From the NCBI GenBank assembly GCA_038245785.1, contig JBBRSB010000024.1:13614-77613 (forward strand): DNA of 64,000 nucleotides, in the 5' to 3' direction. Of this stretch, positions 7,109-37,197 are shown piece after piece. Position 1 is the first letter of the stretch, and every line of letters begins with the position of its first letter. Under the pieces are notes generated by a model. It was not told the DNA's origin and did not search any database. It saw nothing but the letters and a program-made list of their open reading frames with translations. Position numbers and translations under genes: made by a program. This DNA comes from Gloeobacterales cyanobacterium (GTDB taxonomy: Bacteria > Cyanobacteriota > Cyanobacteriia > Gloeobacterales > PMM-0068).

Positions 7109-8560
7109 ATGAACTTCATCGATAAGTTAAATGGAGCTATTGCCCACAATCAAAGTTTATTATCCATCGCCCTCAATCCAGATCCAGAGGTTATTCCTGA
7201 TTGCTTTTCTTTAGGAGAAGGTGACTCTGTTAGGGCCTCAGAAACCTGGCTACAGTCTGTAATTGTCAAAACAGCTGATTTGGTCTGCGTCTATGAACTA
7301 AACTTAGCGTTTTATCTAGCGCTTGGGCCAACGGGGTTAGATTTACTCCATAAAATTCTATCTGCTATTCCTGAATATATTCCAGTCATCTTAGATGCTC
7401 AGTATAGTGATATCAATACAGCCACTCTTTTTGCCCAAACTGTTTTTCTAGACTGGCAAGTCGATGCTGTGACCTTGATTCCTTATGCGGGACAAGATCT
7501 TGTTGCTCCTTTTCTGGTCTATCCAGAGAAAGCCGTTTTTGTTCTCTGTGCAACGGCGAATTCTTCAGCCTCCGCTTTACAGGAATATCCTTCACCAGAA
7601 TCTCCTCTATATATGCAGATGACTAGGGAAGCCCAAACCTGGGGAACGCCAGAACAACTGGGCTTAGTTGTTGGGGTGGCAGCGCCTGAATCCTTAGCCC
7701 GGATTCGGCAACTGGCTCCTGAGCGGGTAATTCTGTCCTCTACTACTTGGAACGACGAAAGTACGCTCGTCCAAATTCTTGCTGCTGGTTTGGATGCCAA
7801 TGGGGATGGCTTAATTATTCCGGTGCCTCAAAGGTTACTAAGTCAGCCGTCTTTGGCTGTAGAGATTGATCATGTACGAGAGCTGATCAATCACGAGCGG
7901 CAGCGAATCGCTTGTGAAAATCCCACCTGTTTAGTTTGGATGCCTGATGTCTGCTTTTTGGATCATCATCCGCACGAAGATTTGATTTTGCAGCTCTACG
8001 ATATGGGCTGTATTGCCTTTGGAGATCATGTCCAATCTTCTGGTTCAACGCTTCCCTACTATGTCGATCTGCGCAAAATCATCTCTAACCCTCAGGTCTT
8101 TCATCAGATCCTGAGCGCCTATGCCGATATTTTGAAAGACCTGGTTTTTGATCGAATTGCCGGGATTCCCTATGGCTCCCTGCCTACGGCGACAGGTTTA
8201 GCGCTACGCATGGGCTACCCGATGATTTTTCCCCGAAAAGAAGTCAAGGCCTACGGGGCGCGTAGACTGATTGAAGGAGCCTACGAAGAAGGGGAAACCA
8301 TCGTTGTCGTCGATGACATTCTGATTACGGGGAAGAGTGTCATGGAAGGCACGGGCAAGCTTGAGTCTGAGGGGTTAGAAGTTCAAGACATCGTAGTCCT
8401 GATTGACCACGAAAGCGGTGCTAGAGAAACCCTCAAACAACGGGGCTATCAAGGTCATGCCGTGCTCACGCTCTCCGAAATTGCTGAAACATTGTATGAG
8501 GCAAGACGGATAAATAAAGAACAGTTTGAGGTTCTAGCCGGAACTTCAGAGAGCCACTAG
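7109..8560 (+). CDS. Bifunctional OMP decarboxylase-like / orotate phosphoribosyltransferase (PyrF-PyrE fusion)
   Basis: C-terminal OPRTase motifs SG..LPYYVDLR, AGIPYGSLP, RKEVKAYG, VVVDDILITGKS. N-terminal OMPDC fold with altered catalytic motif. Confidence 0.88.
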   Translation: MNFIDKLNGAIAHNQSLLSIALNPDPEVIPDCFSLGEGDSVRASETWLQSVIVKTADLVCVYELNLAFYLALGPTGLDLLHKILSAIPEYIPVILDAQYSDINTATLFAQTVFLDWQVDAVTLIPYAGQDLVAPFLVYPEKAVFVLCATANSSASALQEYPSPESPLYMQMTREAQTWGTPEQLGLVVGVAAPESLARIRQLAPERVILSSTTWNDESTLVQILAAGLDANGDGLIIPVPQRLLSQPSLAVEIDHVRELINHERQRIACENPTCLVWMPDVCFLDHHPHEDLILQLYDMGCIAFGDHVQSSGSTLPYYVDLRKIISNPQVFHQILSAYADILKDLVFDRIAGIPYGSLPTATGLALRMGYPMIFPRKEVKAYGARRLIEGAYEEGETIVVVDDILITGKSVMEGTGKLESEGLEVQDIVVLIDHESGARETLKQRGYQGHAVLTLSEIAETLYEARRINKEQFEVLAGTSESH

Positions 8561-8786: not shown

Positions 8787-9593
8787 ATGACACAAGACAA
8801 GTTGCCAGAAAAAGTCTTAGACTGGTGCAAAACAAACGAATGGTCAGAACCATTTCGCCAAGATGGACTGTACTGGGGTTTTGCGCCTGGCTCAGTTATT
8901 CCAATGCCCCTCCCTCTTCCACAAAAATCTCATGAAAGCTACTTCTTAAATCAATACGCAGAATCAATAAAGACTGATCCTACCTGTAAATTTCTCGCTG
9001 AAAGCTTTCCAACGGATTTTGCAGCCTGGTTGCTCAGTGAACGAATAGCCCTAATGCCGCTTGGTTTAAGTGAACTTAGTTCACAAGATATTGAAGCGGA
9101 TTCATCAGTTTTGCTGGATTCAGACAAGGTACTTTTGCACATCGAATTTCATGTCGAACCAGACCCTTGGATTCCTTTCAAGATGATAGATTATCGCCTG
9201 AGACTCTACCACTGTTTCCCTGAAAAACAAATGCGTCAATTCGTCATATATTTAGCTCCTACAGATTCAGATCTCGTTTATCAAAGTGTGTTTGAGACTG
9301 AGATGATGCGGCACGAATTTCAGGTTATCCGCCTCTGGGAGCAGCCCACTCAGCTCTTTTTGGAATCGACAGGATTATTGCCCTTGGCCGTGCTCACTCA
9401 AACCCAAGACAAAGTGCAAACGCTGAGACAAGTGGCATCACGGATTGATGCAATTCCAGAAATGCGTATTCAGAGTAATGTGGCTGCGTCTGCCTCGGTT
9501 CTTGCGGGGTTAACGCTAGAAAAGGACTTTATTAATCAAGTTCTAGGTCAGGAAATCATGCAGCAGTCTGTGATTTATCAAATGCAGAGATGA
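8787..9593 (+). CDS. Rpn-family (recombination-promoting nuclease/putative transposase) protein with extra N-terminal segment, C-terminally truncated
   Basis: DPTCKFLAE.FP.DFAAWLL, ADS...LHIEF, DYRLRL, VIRLWEQP, GLLPLAVL, EIMQQSVIYQ, then an early stop with no DUF4351 tail. Confidence 0.75.
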   Translation: MTQDKLPEKVLDWCKTNEWSEPFRQDGLYWGFAPGSVIPMPLPLPQKSHESYFLNQYAESIKTDPTCKFLAESFPTDFAAWLLSERIALMPLGLSELSSQDIEADSSVLLDSDKVLLHIEFHVEPDPWIPFKMIDYRLRLYHCFPEKQMRQFVIYLAPTDSDLVYQSVFETEMMRHEFQVIRLWEQPTQLFLESTGLLPLAVLTQTQDKVQTLRQVASRIDAIPEMRIQSNVAASASVLAGLTLEKDFINQVLGQEIMQQSVIYQMQR

Positions 9594-9650
9594 AGACTGT
9601 CAAGAACAAGTCCAAGCCATAGAAAGCGGCTACGGTGCCTGAGCCATGAG

Positions 9651-9965
9651 TTGAGTGAATTAGAACCATTGCTAAGATTCTTTGCTAGCTTTGTTTTAGA
9701 TATGGAATTGGTCAGTCAAATTCTCAGGTGGGATATGGCAGTATTACGCGAGTCGCCTTGGTATCAAGAAATCGAACTGACTGGCGCTCTTCGCGAAGCT
9801 CAAGCCCTTATCCACCGCCAGCTCATGCGGCGCATTGGTGAAGTGGCTCCGGATTTGCAAGCCCAGGTTCAAGCCTTGTCGCTTGCTCAGCTTGAGGCTT
9901 TGGGCGAGGCGCTGTTGGATTTTTCGGAACCCGCAGACTTGGTGAATTGGTTGCAGGGGAATTGA
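9651..9965 (+). CDS. DUF4351-domain (Rpn C-terminal) fragment / small protein
   Basis: ELEPLL.FFASFVL...RWDMAVLRESPWYQEI...RQL.RRIG...LSLAQLEALGEALLDFSEPADLVNWL. In-frame internal ATG at 9735. Confidence 0.75.
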   Translation: MSELEPLLRFFASFVLDMELVSQILRWDMAVLRESPWYQEIELTGALREAQALIHRQLMRRIGEVAPDLQAQVQALSLAQLEALGEALLDFSEPADLVNWLQGN

Positions 9966-10649
9966 TTGGGCTAAGCGGCATGAAAAAAGGTTTTGTCGCA
10001 AGAAAGCATTTAGGACAGGAAAACAGAATCTTATTAAGGCTCGGTTGGGCTGAATTTGGATATTCTAACCGTAAGTTTGTGGGCTGAAAGTGCTGATTTC
10101 TCATTGTCGGGAATGCCCTCTAGTAGCGTTTTGTAAATAATCAAGTCTCACAACGATCGAAAACACAACGATTGATGGACTCGAATTTTATATTGCCATG
10201 AATTCATGATTATTAATCCACCTTTGGTGAAGGGAATACAAGTTATAAATTGATGCAGAACAAAGCAAAAATATTCGTAGAAATAAGACTGTACAAACCT
10301 ATTCTAAGTATTTTTCTACACGTTAAACTTCATCAAATCTTCATATAACACTCTACTTCTAAGTAGATATACTTTGGATGTTTGGATATTAAGTCAGATA
10401 TTTAAGAGCCTTGCAACTCTGGTCTGTAACAACTTAGCACCTCAATAGGGCTGCTTTATTGCACACTATAAAGGAGATATACGGAAAAGTTCCGTGTAAT
10501 AACAAGCTATTCTACAAACTGTCAGTCAATGAAAATTATTGACGTTATTCGAGGTTTTCTTTAGTAGACAATACGTATTGTAATGGCGGCATAAAAATGC
10601 AGGTGTGCGTTTAAAAAGACAGCTTTATCAAAGGGTTAAACTAAGTGCT

Positions 10650-11459
10650 ATGACCAATCAGAATATTAGTACCAAAGTAGGAACACTATCAGACAGAGAG
10701 ATAGAAGACTTATGCTCAAAAGGTGATCTGATTGTAGATAATTACTCTAAAAAGAATGTTCATCAATCTTGCTATGAATTACGGGCAAGTCATACTTATT
10801 ATGATATTGCAGATAATAACAAAAAATATAGCCTCTCAAACAATGAGTTTATTCTAATAAAACCACGGCAACTAGTCGTAGTTATAACTATGGAAACGAT
10901 CTCTTTACCTACCGATGTTCTTGCAAGAATTCTTACCAAAGGGAAACTTTTTTCAATTGGGCTATTGCCTGTTAATACATATGCTGACCCTGGATTTTAT
11001 GGAAATTTGGGAATTGTTTTTCATAATTGCTCAAACAATTATTTGAAAATTTCCCCTGGAGAATCTATTGCAAAAATGGAATTTTCTCGCCTTATGGTTC
11101 CTGTTGAAAAACCCTACAGAGGTCAGCATGGTTATCAAACTAATATATGGACTATTCCTGAAGACATGATATTGTCCGATAAAGAAATTCTAAAGGATTC
11201 TAGAATAAAGACTCCAGCAGAAGAAATTATATTATCGTATGGTCCAAATATAGGTAAAGTAATCGATAGAGTTTTTAAATTTGAAAGATACTTAATACTC
11301 GCAGCGCTGTTTTACTTTTTGTTTTCGATGCTAATCATTTATGAAATGCAGGGTAAAAATGATTGGATAACTCCAACAACAAGTATAGTTCTAGGCGTAC
11401 TCTCAAATGTTTTTACTAGCTTACTTGTGTATGCAGCTACTAATATAAGCAGGAGATAA
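10650..11459 (+). CDS. dCTP deaminase/dUTPase-fold protein fused to two C-terminal transmembrane helices
   Basis: LSDREI, (Q)SCYELR, TMETISLP, ADPGFYG, PGESIAKMEF and KPYRG..GYQ match trimeric Dcd/dUTPase motifs. Hydrophobic YLILAALFYFLFSMLIIY and SIVLGVLSNVFTSLLVYAA at the C-terminus. ATG 10650 preferred over GTG 10605. Confidence 0.8.
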   Translation: MTNQNISTKVGTLSDREIEDLCSKGDLIVDNYSKKNVHQSCYELRASHTYYDIADNNKKYSLSNNEFILIKPRQLVVVITMETISLPTDVLARILTKGKLFSIGLLPVNTYADPGFYGNLGIVFHNCSNNYLKISPGESIAKMEFSRLMVPVEKPYRGQHGYQTNIWTIPEDMILSDKEILKDSRIKTPAEEIILSYGPNIGKVIDRVFKFERYLILAALFYFLFSMLIIYEMQGKNDWITPTTSIVLGVLSNVFTSLLVYAATNISRR

Positions 11460-11460
11460 A

Positions 11461-11820
11461 ATGGAAATTAAAGATTTAGCTCATATCCAAAGAGAATTTG
11501 ACGCTAAACATGGATGGATGCTGGAGTCTGACAACTCCAAGGCAAGGCTCGAAATAATTAACAAGGACTTAATAGGTCTTTTTGGTGAGATCGGCGAGTT
11601 CGCAAATCTTGTTAAAAAGCTGAATATTGATATGGAAAAGTCAAAGGATACATTTGAGTTAAAACTATCTGATTTTCAAGATAGTTTAAGTGAGGAATTA
11701 ATAGATAGCTTTATCTACTTATTTAGAATTGCAACCCATTTAGATTTAGATATAGAAAATTCTTACTTGAAGAAGCTTTCTATAAATAGGGAAAAATACA
11801 GAAAATATGAAGAGCAATAA
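11461..11820 (+). CDS. MazG-like (all-alpha) nucleotide pyrophosphohydrolase
   Basis: QREFD..HGW, GEIGEFANLVKK, EELIDSFIYL, DLDIE...KK...N..KY; AGGAG RBS. Confidence 0.85.
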   Translation: MEIKDLAHIQREFDAKHGWMLESDNSKARLEIINKDLIGLFGEIGEFANLVKKLNIDMEKSKDTFELKLSDFQDSLSEELIDSFIYLFRIATHLDLDIENSYLKKLSINREKYRKYEEQ

Positions 11821-12895
11821 AAAATATACTGCTTCTTTTCGTGTAAAAGACATAGTTATACCCTCTAGGATTTTCCTGGCTCCAATCAATACTGGTTTTG
11901 GTAAGGATGGGAACCCAACCTCAAACCTTATACTGTTTCATACAGCAAGATCAGGTAAAGGAATAGGTATAAGTTATGTTGGAAATGTAGCCGTCGATCC
12001 TGCTTTTGTTACAAACAATAACACGTTGTTTTTTACAAAGAACCTTGATCAGTGGAAGAAGCTTACAGAGGAGATTTGTTCCAATGGTTCTTTGCCAGGA
12101 ATTCAAATAGCATGTCGCAATACTGCACTGAAACCTCCAAGACAATGGCTAAATCAAGATGCTAGTTCTTATATTCAAGTGACACGACATGAAATAGCTT
12201 CATATTCGCAGGAGTTTCTGGGAAAAATAGCCCAAAATTTTATTCGAAGTGCACAAATTGCCTATGAAGTTGGCTTTAAGGCAGTTCAAATTCATGCTGC
12301 TCATGGGTATTTTATTTCTAACTTTTTAAACCCCAAATTGAATGGTCGAAAAGATATATATGGAACCAAGAAAACTTTGCTGCTAGAGATGATAGTTGAA
12401 GGTATTCGTTCGATTTTACCAGATATTATTCTAGATGTTCGCATATCATTGCTAGACGGACTGGGAAATAGAGAAATTGAATTGACTGAAAAAGAGCCTA
12501 TCATCTATGATATTGCTGAACTAGACGTTGATATAATTAGTATTTCGAACGGGACATATGATATCAATAAACAGTTGATTTATCCTCCTGCTGAATGGGG
12601 ACATAGTGTTTTTATTGACATTGTTACTCCATTTGCTTTAAGACATCCTGGCAAACTATGGAATGTTGCCGGAAATATATGGGACTTGAATTTGCTGCCT
12701 TCTGAACTTCCAGTTAATATATCTTTTTCTGTAGGTCGTTCATTAATAGCTGATCCAGATTTTATTATTAAGTCTGTTAGTGGGCTGCATGATTCTATCC
12801 AGACTTGCACTAGGACTAATTTGTGCCATTACTACTCAAGAGATCTACCAAATATTGCTTGTCCCATGGATAGGCATTTGAGGCAATTCATATAA
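11807..12895 (+). CDS. NADH:flavin oxidoreductase / Old Yellow Enzyme family TIM-barrel protein
   Basis: RIFLAPINT, VQIHAAHGYFISNFLNP..N.RKDIYG, VRIS, GRSLIADPDF; Cys-containing C-terminal tail (CTRTNLC...C). Confidence 0.82.
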   Translation: MKSNKKYTASFRVKDIVIPSRIFLAPINTGFGKDGNPTSNLILFHTARSGKGIGISYVGNVAVDPAFVTNNNTLFFTKNLDQWKKLTEEICSNGSLPGIQIACRNTALKPPRQWLNQDASSYIQVTRHEIASYSQEFLGKIAQNFIRSAQIAYEVGFKAVQIHAAHGYFISNFLNPKLNGRKDIYGTKKTLLLEMIVEGIRSILPDIILDVRISLLDGLGNREIELTEKEPIIYDIAELDVDIISISNGTYDINKQLIYPPAEWGHSVFIDIVTPFALRHPGKLWNVAGNIWDLNLLPSELPVNISFSVGRSLIADPDFIIKSVSGLHDSIQTCTRTNLCHYYSRDLPNIACPMDRHLRQFI

Positions 12896-13007
12896 TTATT
12901 CAGCTATCCTTTGAGCTTCTACTCAATCAATAATAATGTTGTGATACATTATGGGAGCGCTACACTGAGGGCATCGTTAGAATCTGGCACCCTAGAGGCA
13001 TGCCGCT

Positions 13008-13325
13008 ATGACCTACTCGACCACTGACTACAAACATATTCAACTCGATGACAACGGTATTCCTATCATTGAAGGAACCACGATGAAAGTTGTAGAGTTG
13101 ATTACCTCCCACCTTACCTATGGCTGGAGTCCTGAAGAACTGCACTTCCAGTATCCTCATATTGCGCTTGGCAAAATTTACTCAGCGCTGGCCTACTACT
13201 GGGATCACCAAAATGCGCTTGATGCAGACATTCAATCCCGATTTAAGAAAGTCGAACACCTCCGTCAGGGTGCCCTGCCCTCTCGCATTGCCCAAAAACT
13301 TAAGGAACGCGGAATGCTTTCATGA
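13008..13325 (+). CDS. DUF433-domain putative antitoxin
   Basis: G.PIIEGT.MKV.ELI...GWSPEELHFQYPHI.LGKIYSALAYYWDH. Confidence 0.85.
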   Translation: MTYSTTDYKHIQLDDNGIPIIEGTTMKVVELITSHLTYGWSPEELHFQYPHIALGKIYSALAYYWDHQNALDADIQSRFKKVEHLRQGALPSRIAQKLKERGMLS

Positions 13326-13669
13326 GCATTGCGCTCTACATGGATGAAAACGTCCCGCGTCAGATCACAGTCGGACTACGTCTACGCGCTATCGACGTGA
13401 TAACGGTCCAAGAAGATCAACGAACCGGATTGCCAGACCCTCAAGTCCTCAATCGTGCCACCAAGCTCCAGCGAGTCTTATTTTCCAGAGACGATGATCT
13501 TTTAGCAATTGCCCATCAAAGACAGCAAACAGGCAAACTCTTTTATGGCGTGATTTATTCCCATCCTCAAGGCAGCAGCATTGGCAATTGCGTCCGCGAC
13601 TTGGAACTCATTGCCACCTTGTGCGACTCAGAGGACTGCATCAACCAAGTGCAGTACCTCCCTCTATAA
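13322..13669 (+). CDS. DUF5615 PIN-like putative toxin
   Basis: LYMDENVP...LR.RAIDV.TV.E...G..D..VL..A....RVLFSRDDDLL; overlaps the DUF433 stop codon. Confidence 0.85.
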   Translation: MSIALYMDENVPRQITVGLRLRAIDVITVQEDQRTGLPDPQVLNRATKLQRVLFSRDDDLLAIAHQRQQTGKLFYGVIYSHPQGSSIGNCVRDLELIATLCDSEDCINQVQYLPL

Positions 13670-13793: not shown

Positions 13794-14468
13794 ATGTGCG
13801 GACGTTTTACTCTAACCCAAACCCCTGAAGCGGTTGCTGAAGCTTTCGATCTTGACGAAGACGACATGCCCGATTTCCCCGCCCGCTATAATATTGCCCC
13901 CGCACAGCCCATAGGGACGATTGTGGAAGACAGGGATTCGAAAAACCGGACATTCCGACTGATGCGCTGGGGCCTGATTCCCTCCTGGGCAAAAGACCCT
14001 TCAATTGGCGCAAAGCTCATTAATGCCCGTTCCGAGACTGTCACCGAGAAACCCTCCTTTCGAGCAGCTTTTAAGTATCGCCGCTGTTTAATACCAGCTG
14101 ATGGATTCTATGAGTGGCAAAAGGCTCAGCCCGGCTCAAAACAATCATCAAAACAACCTTTTTACTTTTCCATGGCTGGCAACCGTCTCTTTGCCCTTGC
14201 CGGACTTTGGGAGTCATGGAACGACATAGAGACCTGCATCATTCTGACCACATCGGCCAACAGCCTTTTACAAACCATCCATGACCGGATGCCCGTTATT
14301 TTGAATCGCGAAGATTATGGCCGCTGGCTAGACCCTACAGTACAAGATGCGGAGGTCTTGAAGGATTTACTGCAACCTTACCCGGACGAACCTATGCAAG
14401 CGATTCCAGTGAGCACAAGAGTGAATTCTGCCAAGTTTGACGATGCCCTTTGCCTTAAACCGCTATAG
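13794..14468 (+). CDS. SRAP / SOS response-associated peptidase (HMCES/YedK-like abasic-site protein)
   Basis: N-terminal MCGRF, RYNIAP, WGLIP, INARSET, RCLIPADGFYEW, IHDRMPVIL. Confidence 0.93.
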   Translation: MCGRFTLTQTPEAVAEAFDLDEDDMPDFPARYNIAPAQPIGTIVEDRDSKNRTFRLMRWGLIPSWAKDPSIGAKLINARSETVTEKPSFRAAFKYRRCLIPADGFYEWQKAQPGSKQSSKQPFYFSMAGNRLFALAGLWESWNDIETCIILTTSANSLLQTIHDRMPVILNREDYGRWLDPTVQDAEVLKDLLQPYPDEPMQAIPVSTRVNSAKFDDALCLKPL

Positions 14469-34794: not shown

Positions 34795-37197
34795 ATGAAT
34801 CCTTTTCTGCCTCGAATGCCCCGTGGCAAGCCCTTGCCGACCCCTGCGGCCCTCGTTAAAAAGGTTAATAAGCTTTCGTTCCAAAGGTCTCTATTTACGG
34901 TAGGAGCGATTCTATTGTTAAGTTTGGCCTTAGGCGTGCGCTTCTATAACGAGCCTCAAGTGACTGTGGGCTATAAGGCTACAGAGACGATCCTGGCACC
35001 GCGCGATGCGACTGTTACGGACCGGGAAGCGACAGAGGTTGCCAAAGAAAATGCCCGTCGCCAGATGATCCAGGTTTATCAGCCTTTGAGTGAAGTCGAT
35101 ACGCAGGTCAAGGACCGTCTAGCCTCCCTGATCGAACAAGTGAACCGCCTACGTGGCGTTTTGGGCCCTTTCCCCTTTGCTGATACGAGTTTTCTGACTA
35201 CTGAAAAGCAGCGCCAGCTGTTGCTCCTCAAAGAGCAGGACTGGCAGTCGTTGCGTTCACAATGGCTGTCTCCCGAGCGTAATCCTGGCACGGGCACCCC
35301 TTTACCTTCCAGCATCGATCGTGCCCCGCTGCAGGTTCGCCAAGCACTAGTTGCCCGCGTTGGGGTCGCTCGCCAGAAGTACCGACAGGTTCAGGAACTG
35401 CTTCCCACGATCAACCCTCTTCTCAGAACGGGAGGCATCATTTCCTTCAATGGCAGCGATCCAGCCCCACTTCTAGACCTATCCGATGCTCAATGGCAAG
35501 GCATCCGGGCTCAAGCAAAATTGATAACAGAAAGAATTTTAGCCATGGGCGTTCTTCCTGGTGTTCCAGAAGAAATGAAGATACGGGGGATTAAAGCCCA
35601 GATTCCGGTCGATTGGAATCAAGCGGAACGAAGAGTCGTGCTTGTTCTGGTAGAGACGGTTCTTGAGCCCAACTTGAAAGTTGACCAATTGGCAACGGTC
35701 AGAAAAGTTGAGCGAGAAATTCTTGAAGTAGACCAGGTTGTCTTGCCGATTAAAAAAGGTCAGGTCTTAGTCCAGTCAGGAGAGACCGTCACTCCCCGAT
35801 TGTTTAACATCCTGGACCAGCTGGGCCTTACACAGCGGGGCGTCAATTGGCTCGGTTTAGGGGTTTTGACAGCTATTTTGATCTTCTGTGTCAGTGTTTT
35901 CCAGTGGCTCGTTCCCAAAGCCTTACAGGAGTCTTCTCCTGGAGGAAAAAATTTACGCACTCGAGATTTGCGCCGCGAAGACCAAATTCTGATCTTGGCC
36001 CTGGCTGTGGCTGTGGGGGTGATCGGAGCTGTGTTTTCTCTAGACTGGACCCTATATTTGCCTTTGTCTGCCTTTGGACTACTGGTAGGGAGTTTTTATG
36101 GCACTAATCTAGGTTTTCTGGCGGTATTCTGTTTTCTGCCTCCCTTGATTCAGGGTTGGAACTGGCAGCATCCCTTGTATCTCTTGCTTCCTACTATCGG
36201 CGGTGCTCTAGTGGCGGCTTGGGTTGGCGGTCGCGTTCGTTCGCGGGATGAGATGGCCTTGGGTGGCATCGGGGTGTCCCTGGTCCAAGGGGGCTTGTAT
36301 CTGCTGATTGCCTTAGTGTTGTTGGGACGTCCGCTGGATTGGCAACTCCTCCTAGAAGCGACACAGTGCGCAGCCAGTGGACTGCTGTGGTGTATCGTCG
36401 CGCTGGGGGTAAGTCCTTTTCTAGAGAGTCTGTTCGATTTGGTAACGCCCGTGCGCCTGGTGGAGCTTGCGAACCCCAACCGTCCTTTGTTGAAACGTCT
36501 GGCTACAGAAGCACCAGGCACCTATCAGCACACGCTCTTCGTGGCTAATTTGGCTACGGCTGCTGCCCAAGCGGTAGGCGCAAATGTGGAACTGGTCCGG
36601 GCCGGGACGCTTTATCACGATATTGGCAAGATGGTACGGCCGCTGTACTTCATTGAAAATCAGATGGGGCTTCCTAATCCCCACGATGAGCTGTCTGCAC
36701 CCAAACGTTCTGCTCAGATGATCAAAGCCCATGTGGCCGATGGGCTCAAACTCGCCAAAAAGTACAATCTCCCTCAAGCGATTCGAAATTTTATTCCAGA
36801 ACATCAGGGCACGATTCAGATTGCCTATTTCTATCATCAGGCCCGACAACAAAACCCCGAGGCTGAAATTTCAGAAGAGGACTTTACCTACGATGGACCG
36901 ATTCCCCAAAGCCGGGAGACCGGGCTATTGATGCTAGCGGATGCCTGCGAAGCGGCTCTACGCTCCTTGGCCGATACGGGGGAGGAGGAAGCCTTTGGCA
37001 TGGTCCGGCGTATTCTCCAAAGTCGCTTGAATGATGGACAGTTAGCGGATTCAGGTATTGAAGAGACAGAATTAGCCCTGATTGCTCGGGTTTTTGTCAA
37101 GGTTTGGAAGGAACAAAACCACACCCGCATCCGCTATCCAGCCCTACCTAGTGGTGCTGGTGCGGCCAAGCGTAGACCAAGAGCCTCTATTTCTTAG
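34795..37197 (+). CDS. 7TM-HD (HDIG) phosphohydrolase, PgpH-like c-di-AMP phosphodiesterase
   Basis: Extracellular domain + multiple TM helices + EAPGTYQH, YHDIGK, YFIENQ, HV.DG, EHQGT, MLADACEAA. Confidence 0.87.
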   Translation: MNPFLPRMPRGKPLPTPAALVKKVNKLSFQRSLFTVGAILLLSLALGVRFYNEPQVTVGYKATETILAPRDATVTDREATEVAKENARRQMIQVYQPLSEVDTQVKDRLASLIEQVNRLRGVLGPFPFADTSFLTTEKQRQLLLLKEQDWQSLRSQWLSPERNPGTGTPLPSSIDRAPLQVRQALVARVGVARQKYRQVQELLPTINPLLRTGGIISFNGSDPAPLLDLSDAQWQGIRAQAKLITERILAMGVLPGVPEEMKIRGIKAQIPVDWNQAERRVVLVLVETVLEPNLKVDQLATVRKVEREILEVDQVVLPIKKGQVLVQSGETVTPRLFNILDQLGLTQRGVNWLGLGVLTAILIFCVSVFQWLVPKALQESSPGGKNLRTRDLRREDQILILALAVAVGVIGAVFSLDWTLYLPLSAFGLLVGSFYGTNLGFLAVFCFLPPLIQGWNWQHPLYLLLPTIGGALVAAWVGGRVRSRDEMALGGIGVSLVQGGLYLLIALVLLGRPLDWQLLLEATQCAASGLLWCIVALGVSPFLESLFDLVTPVRLVELANPNRPLLKRLATEAPGTYQHTLFVANLATAAAQAVGANVELVRAGTLYHDIGKMVRPLYFIENQMGLPNPHDELSAPKRSAQMIKAHVADGLKLAKKYNLPQAIRNFIPEHQGTIQIAYFYHQARQQNPEAEISEEDFTYDGPIPQSRETGLLMLADACEAALRSLADTGEEEAFGMVRRILQSRLNDGQLADSGIEETELALIARVFVKVWKEQNHTRIRYPALPSGAGAAKRRPRASIS

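Follow-up and report, generated by a model that had tools for sequence, protein, structure and literature searches.

A mobile gene module joining a membrane-anchored dUTPase-fold protein with an Old Yellow Enzyme-class flavoenzyme: a probable defence or conflict system

The operon and its low-GC island

The present analysis concerns a stretch of 64,000 nucleotides (nt) from a Gloeobacterales cyanobacterium (assembly GCA_038245785.1, contig JBBRSB010000024.1, positions 13,614 to 77,613), called here the window, and in particular three co-oriented genes at its positions 10650 to 12895. They code for a membrane-anchored protein with the fold of dUTPases and dCTP deaminase (Dcd), a putative MazG-type pyrophosphatase and a predicted flavoenzyme of the Old Yellow Enzyme (OYE) class, denominated in the following Dcd-like-TM (TM for transmembrane), MazG-like and OYE-like protein. 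These three genes are one operon, they are functionally linked and they represent the source genome's copy of a widespread module. The conserved unit of this module is the pair of Dcd-like-TM and OYE-like genes and the MazG-like gene is optional. The features of the locus are as follows.

10000..12960 (approximate), no strand: low-GC island recognized from base composition, holding the operon and an AT-rich gap of 640 nt upstream of it
10650..11459, forward strand: gene 1, Dcd-like-TM, a membrane-anchored dUTPase/Dcd-fold protein of 269 amino acids (PF22769, E 5.9e-17)
11461..11820, forward strand: gene 2, predicted DCTPP1-like MazG-type nucleoside-triphosphate pyrophosphatase of 119 amino acids, accessory component (invariant residues, PDB profile search)
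11807..12895, forward strand: gene 3, predicted stand-alone OYE-class flavin mononucleotide (FMN) reductase of 362 amino acids, obligate partner of gene 1 (PF00724, E 6.8e-21)

A first-pass annotation, made from the sequence without database searches, had described the genes as tightly coupled by a gap of one nucleotide and an overlap of 14, and this is exact: gene 1 ends with TAA at 11457-11459 and gene 2 starts with ATG at 11461, while the ATG of gene 3 at 11807 precedes the TAA of gene 2 at 11818-11820. An in-frame GTG is located at 10605, upstream of the ATG of gene 1 at 10650; homologues begin at the ATG (e.g., P0001 of the protein census, 269 amino acids, 100% identity) and the GTG is probably not a start codon. 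The GC content of the module amounts to 34.3% against 48.5% across the remaining window, and the G+C numbers counted by hand for single lines of 60 nt in the first-pass annotation (14 at 11701, 19 at 12001 and 36 at 36541) all proved correct. Around the island only short two-copy repeats and no flanking insertion scars were detected. A promoter scan returned 13 promoter-like sites compared with 13.1 expected from shuffled sequences, i.e. no excess, and a terminator scan around the module returned none. The Rfam scan of positions 9600-13400 (E ≤ 1) gave no match and therefore no riboswitch hint to a ligand.

Linkage of the genes and accessory components

Two independent collections were scanned for the module. 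A scan with one genome per species gave 40 loci (numbered with the prefix L, as are those from other sources), and 80 of 108 loci found in metagenomes were kept. The OYE-like gene adjoins the Dcd-like-TM gene in the same orientation in 34 of the 40 species-genome loci. In the metagenomes it was detected in 59 of 80 loci, always on the same strand (59/59) and with matches at most 592 nt away from the Dcd match; of the 28 loci whose sequence extends over more than 1.5 kb to either side, 25 possess it. The MazG-like gene occurs in 20 of 40 species-genome loci and in 44 of 80 metagenome loci. It is the pair that is conserved in homologous neighbourhoods, and the MazG-like gene takes part in about half of the loci only. 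Since the adjacency is conserved in both independent collections, a chance juxtaposition of three metabolic genes is ruled out. Linkage is further apparent from the identities to the window proteins that co-vary between loci (Spearman 0.51-0.63, n = 41-54; descriptive values, as related loci are not independent) and from Methylobacterium (L030) and Methyloceanibacter (L031), where Dcd-like and MazG-like parts are fused in a single open reading frame (ORF) devoid of TM helices.

The six species-genome loci lacking an OYE-like gene comprise a full-length but solitary Dcd-like-TM gene (L009), a Dcd-MazG arrangement (L036), the truncated remnants L035 and L038, and the most distant relatives, L037 and L039, both with about 30% identity. 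One of the remnants (L038, 6052-6327) is a piece of 91 amino acids in which a Dcd-like fragment reads into a segment resembling the OYE-like C-terminus ('...CRELIANPMF'); its appearance is that of a degenerate module whose two genes were merged through an internal deletion. In the two distant relatives a flavin reductase of family PF01613 is encoded downstream of Dcd-like-TM in place of the OYE-like protein (L037, 6851-7396; L039, 5063-5665). The flavin link of Dcd-like-TM may extend beyond the pairing with OYE.

The accessory position is occupied by various genes. In three loci without the MazG-like gene there is a NUDIX gene between both core genes (L004), a canonical MazG together with a HAD gene (L017) or a 5'-nucleotidase (L025). 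A gene of the thymidylate kinase family (Tmk-like) abuts the module in 7 of 40 species-genome loci and was found in 6 of 80 metagenome loci.

The Dcd-like-TM protein

10677..11090, forward strand: β-barrel nucleotide-binding core, residues ~10-147 (alignments, AlphaFold2 model)
11292..11441, forward strand: two C-terminal hydrophobic helices, residues ~215-233 and 246-264 (hydropathy scan)

Gene 1 had been annotated as a dCTP-deaminase/dUTPase-fold protein with two TM segments; the fold and the two hydrophobic segments stand and the deaminase does not. The product matches PF22769 (DCD, E-value as listed above), and 620 homologues were retrieved. Its AlphaFold2 monomer model (pLDDT 81.9) shows a confident barrel followed by helices 199-235 and 242-265. 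The best structural relatives of this model in a Foldseek search are Dcd and archaeal dUTPases (E. coli Dcd, 6e-13), with target-normalised TM-scores of 0.69-0.88 over about 160-170 columns. A search of the ESM Atlas with the protein returned just generic clusters of 'dCTP deaminase-like domain-containing' proteins. For the analysis of conservation and for profile searches 20 diverse members were aligned. The resulting profile matched the dUTPase of Thermococcus pacificus (8y1w, 3e-18) and 'dUTPase P45' (9ln0, 1e-17) in the PDB, as well as Dcd:dut from M. tuberculosis (2qxx, 1.5e-9).

In the 2qxx alignment the segment 'lGivlsn' ('GIVxxN') is placed under 'ITLELSN', and 'tkGklfsiG' under 'GKSSLGRLG'. 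We take the Glu of 'ITLELSN' (E138 in E. coli, E145 in M. jannaschii) to be the catalytic residue of Dcd, and the PDB titles among the structural matches, which name E138A, E138D, E145A and E145Q variants, are consistent with this role. In Dcd-like-TM the corresponding position is Val123, invariant in all 20 members, and because of this replacement deamination is very unlikely, so that the gene 1 product, as judged from its sequence, is hardly a dCTP deaminase. With the dCTP-deaminase equivalog TIGR02274 it reaches 86.5 bits and remains under the cut-off of 92.8. Asp113 of the ADPGF motif is invariant and aligns to 'WVDPGWDG' of 8y1w. The Ser and Arg of dUTPase motif II ('LRSSLAREG' in 8y1w, 'ltkGklfsiG' here) and the Arg and Gln of motif IV ('ERFVQIAF' in 8y1w, 'geaiaKieF' here) are replaced, and two invariant basic residues, K97 and K142, are found in place of the dUTPase Arg, Ser and Gln.

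The C-terminal arm carries the invariant motif YxGQHGYQT..W, which in the model runs directly into the helices and the TM hairpin, and G249 and N253 are conserved in the second hydrophobic helix. Among 40 family ORFs the hydropathy scan detected two C-terminal hydrophobic segments in 31, one in five and none in four, the last being the two Dcd-MazG fusions and two truncated fragments. In the protein census a sister group of about 300 amino acids (P0215, P0232, P0253 and others) shows a longer helical linker ahead of the TM helices.

In the source genome (98% complete) gene 1 is the sole match to PF22769, TIGR02274 finds no match above its cut-off anywhere, and a separate gene of the dUTPase family is located on another contig (C2, 72937-73311, reverse strand). 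A housekeeping Dcd is ruled out by the score under the equivalog cut-off, the missing catalytic Glu, the absence of the gene from all 40 relatives and the presence of the separate dUTPase gene.

The MazG-like protein

As a single sequence the gene 2 product gives weak library matches (dUTPase_2 with 18 bits and E 0.0036, under the cut-off of 22.9; phrog_229 with 9.3e-5) and no match to Pfam MazG (PF03819) at E ≤ 0.01. The solved structure in the PDB nearest to the family profile is DCTPP1/RS21-C6 (2e-12), and in 19 sequences E43, E46, E79, D82, K52 and K53 are invariant, with E78 in at least 90%. The EExxE...ExxD residues, predicted to bind metal, align to 'GEVGELAE...EELSDVLIYL' of DCTPP1. 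The assignment of a MazG-like pyrophosphatase in the first-pass annotation is in accordance with this profile and these invariant residues.

The OYE-like flavoenzyme

12806..12862, forward strand: family-specific segment C334-x5-C340-H341-x10-C352 (invariant, 33/33)

The gene 3 product, already annotated as a putative Old Yellow Enzyme flavoprotein, matches PF00724 (Oxidored_FMN) with 75.3 bits (cut-off 27) over positions 6-339 of 342. Its nearest relative is YqjM (2.4e-30), whose 'IHAAHGYL' is aligned with 'ihAAHGYl'. In 33 sequences Q100, H166, Y168 and R212 are invariant and H163 is conserved in at least 90%; presumably His/His(Asn) form the substrate pair, Tyr is the proton donor, and Gln and Arg bind FMN.

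The three cysteines and one histidine of the listed segment probably constitute a metal or Fe-S site. Superposed on the FMN/[4Fe-4S] N-domains found in 2-naphthoyl-CoA reductase, FadH, TMADH and histamine dehydrogenase, the AlphaFold2 model (pLDDT 95.5) reaches a query-normalised TM-score of 0.78-0.79, and on plain OYEs just 0.69-0.74. The protein stops at residue 362 and is devoid of the C-terminal flavin adenine dinucleotide (FAD) and NAD(P)H domains of the Fe-S relatives. Its matches reach only the N-terminal halves of models with 640-770 positions and stay far under all NCBIfam equivalog cut-offs. A LIYP motif is specific to the OYE-like family. For the OYE-like protein a complex prediction with the first 200 residues of the Dcd-like protein scored 0.00, which is evidence neither way.

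Distribution and mobility

The record titles of the species-genome loci span at least 11 phyla. Besides Bacteroidota, Bacillota, Actinomycetota, alpha-, beta- and gamma-Pseudomonadota and Desulfobacterota-type lineages they include Planctomycetota, Verrucomicrobiota, Acidobacteriota, Nitrospinota, Cloacimonadota and one Melainabacteria-type metagenome-assembled genome. A census of 1.84 billion representatives yielded 75 clusters (50% identity) at E ≤ 1e-30 and 758 at E ≤ 1e-10. Among 41 genomes from the same genus, order and class the gene was detected in the source genome itself only and is absent from the other 40. Because of the low GC content and this presence in one of 41 related genomes the module is horizontally acquired, as suggested by the first-pass annotation, and mobile.

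The full triad was found on a plasmid of Priestia megaterium and on a conjugative plasmid of Sinorhizobium meliloti, in both cases annotated as 'hypothetical' and located among transposases, DUF4062, AAA ATPases and Dam methylase; on the Priestia plasmid the module comes after genes for a 'damage repair protein' and a YolD-like protein. Integrases or transposases flank five further loci (L020, L025, L027, L030, L037). Among 2.9 million viral contigs just three loci were detected, all of them with the triad. One is located after the genes for baseplate, tail fibre and tail-fibre assembly and after that for a DNA methyltransferase (L045), and another lies directly downstream of a CI-like repressor and near an integrase (L046). 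Between module and integrase of the latter a deoxyribonucleoside 5'-monophosphate phosphatase is encoded (12345-12887, forward strand; phrog_318, 9e-68). A phage auxiliary cassette of nucleotide metabolism is ruled out, since none of 29 matching phage records covers at least 80% of the Dcd-like protein and the three viral copies occupy lysogeny or accessory positions.

Defence context and domain fusions

The first-pass annotation had placed the module in a defence-type context, which both its neighbours and the effector-type fusions of its relatives corroborate. Two ORFs on each side of the module were compared with the PADLOC models at 39 loci (143 ORFs in total), and 12 of the 39 loci have a match within this distance, these being raw hidden Markov model (HMM) matches and not system calls, counted without a matched background.

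L007: type I restriction-modification
L010: DpdF/PsyrT-like helicase
L012: type II methyltransferase
L013: DpdB-like
L019: PDC-S28
L020: PDC-M65B
L021: LeoA-like
L025: PDC-M62B
L026: capP
L029: mad3/AriA-like ATPase
L037: SIR2
L040: PDC-S14

An IstB fragment resembling DrmD (L027) and a methyltransferase resembling mad2 (L038) were left out of this number, and the accessories of the module were counted apart. Of these the Tmk-like protein matches PDC-M51B (1e-14 to 1e-19) and VakA, the 5'-nucleotidase of L025 matches PDC-S08 (7.8e-137) and the NUDIX protein of L004 matches PDC-S07 (9e-9). A helix-turn-helix protein of about 650 amino acids, with an N-terminus resembling PADLOC HTH_VI or RmrA, adjoins the module in the unrelated loci L013 (3906-5879, reverse strand) and L020 (5642-7600, forward strand), and in L020 it is followed by the PDC-M65B-like gene.

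Longer relatives of the Dcd-like domain comprise 11 fused proteins, ten of them with an N-terminal PNP_UDP_1 (PNP) domain. Four of these ten were scanned and all matched best the model 'Effector PN-superfamily' of the cyclic-oligonucleotide-based anti-phage signalling system, CBASS (1e-25 to 5.4e-35). PNP-fused forms at L020 and L088 retain OYE-like and MazG-like neighbours. One further fusion carries a PRTase-CE domain that matches effector models of type III-A retrons (4e-21). The census additionally contains a fusion of NUDIX, Dcd-like domain and two TM helices (P0138) and a fusion of the Bacterial Death-like domain bDLD3 (PF20690, 2.2e-16) with Dcd-like domain and TM segment (P0151). As far as the main text of Kaur et al. 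2021 (PMC8195603) describes it, bDLD3 is an adaptor joined to C-terminal effector domains of conflict systems. Because in P0151 this adaptor is fused directly to it, Dcd-like-TM would take the effector position there according to the 'EAD principle' of the same text.

That the module is no recognised named system, as had been supposed, agrees with the searches made. PADLOC-DB v2.0.0 gave no family at E ≤ 0.01 for any of the three proteins, and neither in the module nor in the 143 ORFs flanking 39 loci was a CD-NTase, cyclase, TIR or nucleotidyltransferase-type signal generator detected. No description of the module was found in the literature searched, and one could be held by bioRxiv supplements or non-open journals, which were out of reach. 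The terms dCTP, flavin, old yellow and MazG do not occur in the main text of PMC8195603, nor do dCTP, dUTP, old yellow, flavin, MazG and thymidylate kinase in Kaur et al. 2020 (PMC7159879).

Comparison with known systems

PADLOC holds a model for dCTP deaminase, and Dcd-like-TM differs from the defensive dCTP deaminases by having no catalytic Glu, by lying under the equivalog cut-off and by its lack of any PADLOC match. The module is not a member of this family. The nucleotide-based defences named in the main text of a 2026 review (PMC13276650) are dCTP deaminase and dGTPase (Tal et al. 2022, in the summary given there), viperin and Kongming, and the word 'flavin' is absent from this text. Judged from this summary, module and defensive dCTP deaminase have in common a Dcd/dUTPase-fold protein beside defence genes and a proposed logic of deoxynucleotide starvation of the phage, and a nucleotide kinase is associated with the module in 7 of 40 loci. 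Neither a membrane hairpin nor an obligate flavoenzyme partner is described there for the defensive dCTP deaminase, and the module has both. Viperins with their kinases and Kongming with its dITP signal (PMC13276650, main text) are similar as far as immunity by altered nucleotides is concerned, with the Tmk-like accessory resembling PDC-M51B and VakA. The module, in contrast, contains no radical-SAM enzyme, deaminase or SIR2, and the modifying enzyme would be a flavin reductase.

With the TM and PNP effectors of CBASS and Pycsar the module shares the succession of a nucleotide-binding domain and TM helices, and relatives possess the PNP domain mentioned above. Nevertheless the absence of any CD-NTase or cyclase gene, both within the module and next to it, excludes it from CBASS and Pycsar, and its binding domain has a dUTPase fold instead of SAVED, STING or CARF.

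At the level of single proteins archaeal and archaeal-virus dUTPases (8y1w, 9ln0, the S. tokodaii entries 2yzj and 2zdc, and SIRV records) are the best sequence match to Dcd-like-TM (3e-18 among structures), and archaeal-virus dUTPases are also the best among phage records, with about 31% identity. Common to both are the barrel, an Asp-containing DPG(W/F)xG motif and the absence of Glu. The archaeal enzymes are soluble, comprise about 155-170 amino acids and keep Ser/Arg ('RSSLAREG') and Arg/Gln ('ERFVQI'), whereas Dcd-like-TM shows 'TKGKLFSIG' and 'E(A/S)IAKIEF' and is longer by about 110 residues, with two TM helices at the end. The MazG-like protein resembles DCTPP1/RS21-C6 and the MazG-type all-α pyrophosphatases of nucleoside triphosphates in its profile match and its invariant EExxE...ExxD residues. 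It differs in a divergent N-terminus of about 40 residues, in the missing PF03819 match, in its location in a mobile operon and in its fusion with the Dcd-like domain in L030 and L031.

The OYE-like protein resembles YqjM-type OYEs as a predicted TIM-barrel FMN enzyme with aligned HAAHGY, Gln and Arg. Fe-S flavoenzymes carry a four-Cys motif after the barrel. On this group (FadH, 2-naphthoyl-CoA reductase, TMADH, histamine dehydrogenase) the Cys-rich post-barrel segment of the OYE-like protein superposes, but it has three Cys and one His instead of four Cys and no C-terminal FAD and NAD(P)H domains follow. It is distinguished from both groups by the LIYP motif and by scores under every NCBIfam equivalog cut-off.

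Proposed mechanism and alternative explanations

We consider it rather probable that the module is a defence or conflict system, its links to immunity being strong though circumstantial. More tentatively, and with somewhat less than even confidence in this particular mechanism, we suggest an anti-phage system of the abortive-infection type that attacks the pyrimidine deoxynucleotide supply. The core would consist of a dUTPase/Dcd-fold protein of the trimeric type, which its C-terminal two-helix hairpin anchors to the membrane, and of a stand-alone OYE-class FMN reductase with a putative Cys3-His site. The accessories, i.e. the DCTPP1-like MazG protein here and NUDIX, canonical MazG, thymidylate-kinase-like protein or 5'-nucleotidase elsewhere, would all be nucleotide phosphotransfer enzymes. 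The Dcd-like protein would act as the effector, binding and probably hydrolysing a dU- or dC-type nucleotide at the membrane, and the MazG-like enzyme (NUDIX in other loci) would hydrolyse triphosphates of the dCTP type. The bond reduced by the flavoenzyme would be an activated C=C, in the most plausible case that between C5 and C6 of a pyrimidine, and its reduction could either make the removal of the nucleotide irreversible or yield a toxic dihydropyrimidine nucleotide; a Tmk-like kinase, in the loci that have one, could phosphorylate such a toxic analogue again. The substrates and the order of these steps, like the defence role itself, are what we infer; directly observed are the linkage of the genes, their breadth and mobility, the defence-type context and fusions and the state of the catalytic residues. 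An enzymatic cascade is preferred because all associated domains are nucleotide-metabolising and the MazG-like and OYE-like proteins retain their putative catalytic residues, and also because the Death-like fusion would place Dcd-like-TM as effector and Dcd-MazG fusions without TM helices exist.

Several points speak against this cascade. None of the parts identified appears to be a phage-sensing component. The pocket of the Dcd-like domain lacks the Ser, Arg and Gln used by dUTPases and Dcd and also the Glu; therefore it may bind without hydrolysing, which favours a sensor. An enzyme acting on a soluble pool needs no membrane hairpin, and we know of no OYE-family enzyme that reduces nucleotides. 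The matches to defence models next to the module are raw and have no matched background, viral copies are rare, and the phage records fall short of 80% coverage of the Dcd-like protein. Finally, one lineage (L069, L082, L083) has no OYE-like gene and occurs in a DNA-repair setting. In locus L082 (1731-8772) of this high-GC lineage the Dcd-like-TM gene has uvrA on one side and uvrC on the other, a CofD-like gene follows, and a NUDIX-like stretch found by tblastn (no Pfam match at 1e-4) lies just upstream of Dcd-like-TM.

The first-pass annotation had proposed a wiring in which the OYE would make a signal that MazG clears and that the trimer perceives, thereby triggering a membrane effector. This is possible, but three features, namely the Death-like fusion, the TM-less Dcd-MazG fusions and the varied accessory phosphohydrolases and kinases, agree at least as well with an enzymatic or effector role of the Dcd-like domain. 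In its general form such a scheme, which we regard as unlikely though worth serious consideration, lets the flavoenzyme make or unmask a modified pyrimidine nucleotide upon infection and the remodelled dUTPase-fold trimer act as its receptor, the ligand ordering the C-terminal arm and thereby actuating the 2-TM hairpin, the PNP nucleosidase, the PRTase or the MazG/NUDIX pyrophosphatase. Catalytic positions that are replaced while the pocket remains highly conserved are a pattern typical of binding domains, the arm motif leads straight into helices and hairpin, and the PNP-fused form keeps its MazG-like and OYE-like neighbours (L088, L020). The constant OYE-like partner together with varied modules fused to or encoded beside the Dcd-like domain is reminiscent of swappable effectors, a pattern known from CBASS, Pycsar and Thoeris. 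On the other hand, module and scanned flanks hold no cyclase, TIR or nucleotidyltransferase-type generator, and to our knowledge there is no precedent for an OYE as signal synthase. The accessory kinases, nucleotidases and HAD phosphatases resemble flux enzymes, and the NUDIX lineage manages without any OYE. If the Death-like adaptor makes Dcd-like-TM of P0151 an effector, as the adaptor role in the main text of PMC8195603 implies, small-molecule input is unnecessary. A variant focused on flavin immune chemistry, in which the OYE-like protein makes a reduced (e.g., 5,6-dihydro) pyrimidine deoxynucleotide that serves as replication poison or as second messenger, the latter read by the dUTPase-fold trimer whose arm gates a six-helix membrane assembly or PNP, PRTase or pyrophosphatase, is speculative and in our opinion still somewhat less likely to be true.

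Immunity need not be involved at all if the module is a mobile device for nucleotide-pool sanitation or DNA-damage tolerance that clears non-canonical or damaged pyrimidine deoxynucleoside triphosphates (dUTP, oxidised or 5-modified dCTP or dUTP) and from which the host, or the carrying plasmid or prophage, would profit. Among solved structures the MazG-like protein is nearest to DCTPP1, a house-cleaning enzyme, and dUTPases and NUDIX proteins are classic pool sanitisers. The location of the NUDIX/Dcd-like-TM lineage between uvrA and uvrC, the 'damage repair protein' and YolD-like genes preceding the Priestia plasmid module and the SRAP gene 900 nt downstream in the window point to the same direction. 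We consider this explanation improbable, as it is hard to reconcile with fusions to CBASS-type PNP, retron-type PRTase and Death-like adaptor; the membrane anchor, the extreme patchiness (one of 41 relatives), the prophage accessory position beside a repressor and defence-gene neighbours in 12 of 39 loci fit poorly as well, and the source genome already has a gene of the dUTPase family. Very improbable, finally, is a redox effector in which the flavin oxidoreductase, released by Dcd-like-TM, burns NAD(P)H and so drains reducing power or makes reactive oxygen, in analogy to SIR2 and TIR effectors that deplete NAD+. It would account for the PF01613 flavin reductase partner in L037 and L039, with flavin reduction by NAD(P)H rather than ene-reduction as the shared trait, and for an OYE-like protein without the FAD and NAD(P)H domains of its Fe-S relatives. 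Its basis is just these two loci, both with about 30% identity, the strictly conserved Tyr and His pair on the substrate side argues for a real ene-substrate, and the MazG, Tmk and NUDIX accessories are left without a role.

Significance

If the preferred cascade or another defence role is confirmed, two families so far unlinked to immunity, namely a dUTPase-fold protein that is tethered to the membrane and is no deaminase, and a flavoenzyme of the OYE class, would join dCTP deaminase, dGTPase, viperin and Kongming in nucleotide-centred immunity, and redox flavin chemistry on nucleotides would gain an immune role. Should the flavin immune chemistry be true, the module could represent a new defence category, the first redox-flavoenzyme antiphage system and a new class of nucleotide-signal receptors. 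Even in the case of sanitation the nucleotide biochemistry would be novel, with an OYE acting together with enzymes of the dUTPase and DCTPP1 type. The module is compact (two to four genes, about 2.3 kb), its carriers include plasmids as well as cultivable Bacillota and Gammaproteobacteria, and its putative catalytic residues are clear targets for mutation, so it is directly testable.

Neighbouring genes in the window

8787..9593, forward strand: ORF with sub-threshold match to the Rpn family (TIGR01784, 41 bits, cut-off 52)
9651..9965, forward strand: DUF4351 ORF, upstream neighbour (library scan)
13008..13325, forward strand: DUF433 ORF, downstream (library scan)
13322..13669, forward strand: DUF5615/PIN_10 ORF, downstream, pairs with the DUF433 ORF (library scan)
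13794..14468, forward strand: SRAP ORF, downstream, about 900 nt past the module (library scan)

The neighbours named in the first-pass annotation were recovered as far as DUF4351, DUF433, the PIN-type partner and SRAP are concerned, whereas the Rpn assignment remained below the threshold. Further upstream, 1.5 kb before the island, a bifunctional orotidine-5'-phosphate decarboxylase/orotate phosphoribosyltransferase is encoded (7109-8560, forward strand; NF004034, 5.7e-218, over the cut-off); the proximity of this pyrimidine-biosynthesis gene is probably a coincidence. The N-terminus of the ORF at 8787-9593 additionally gives a short match to the slr1957 family, and DUF4351 sits in the separate ORF at 9651-9965. 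Both ORFs may represent a split or decayed Rpn-like gene at the edge of the island.

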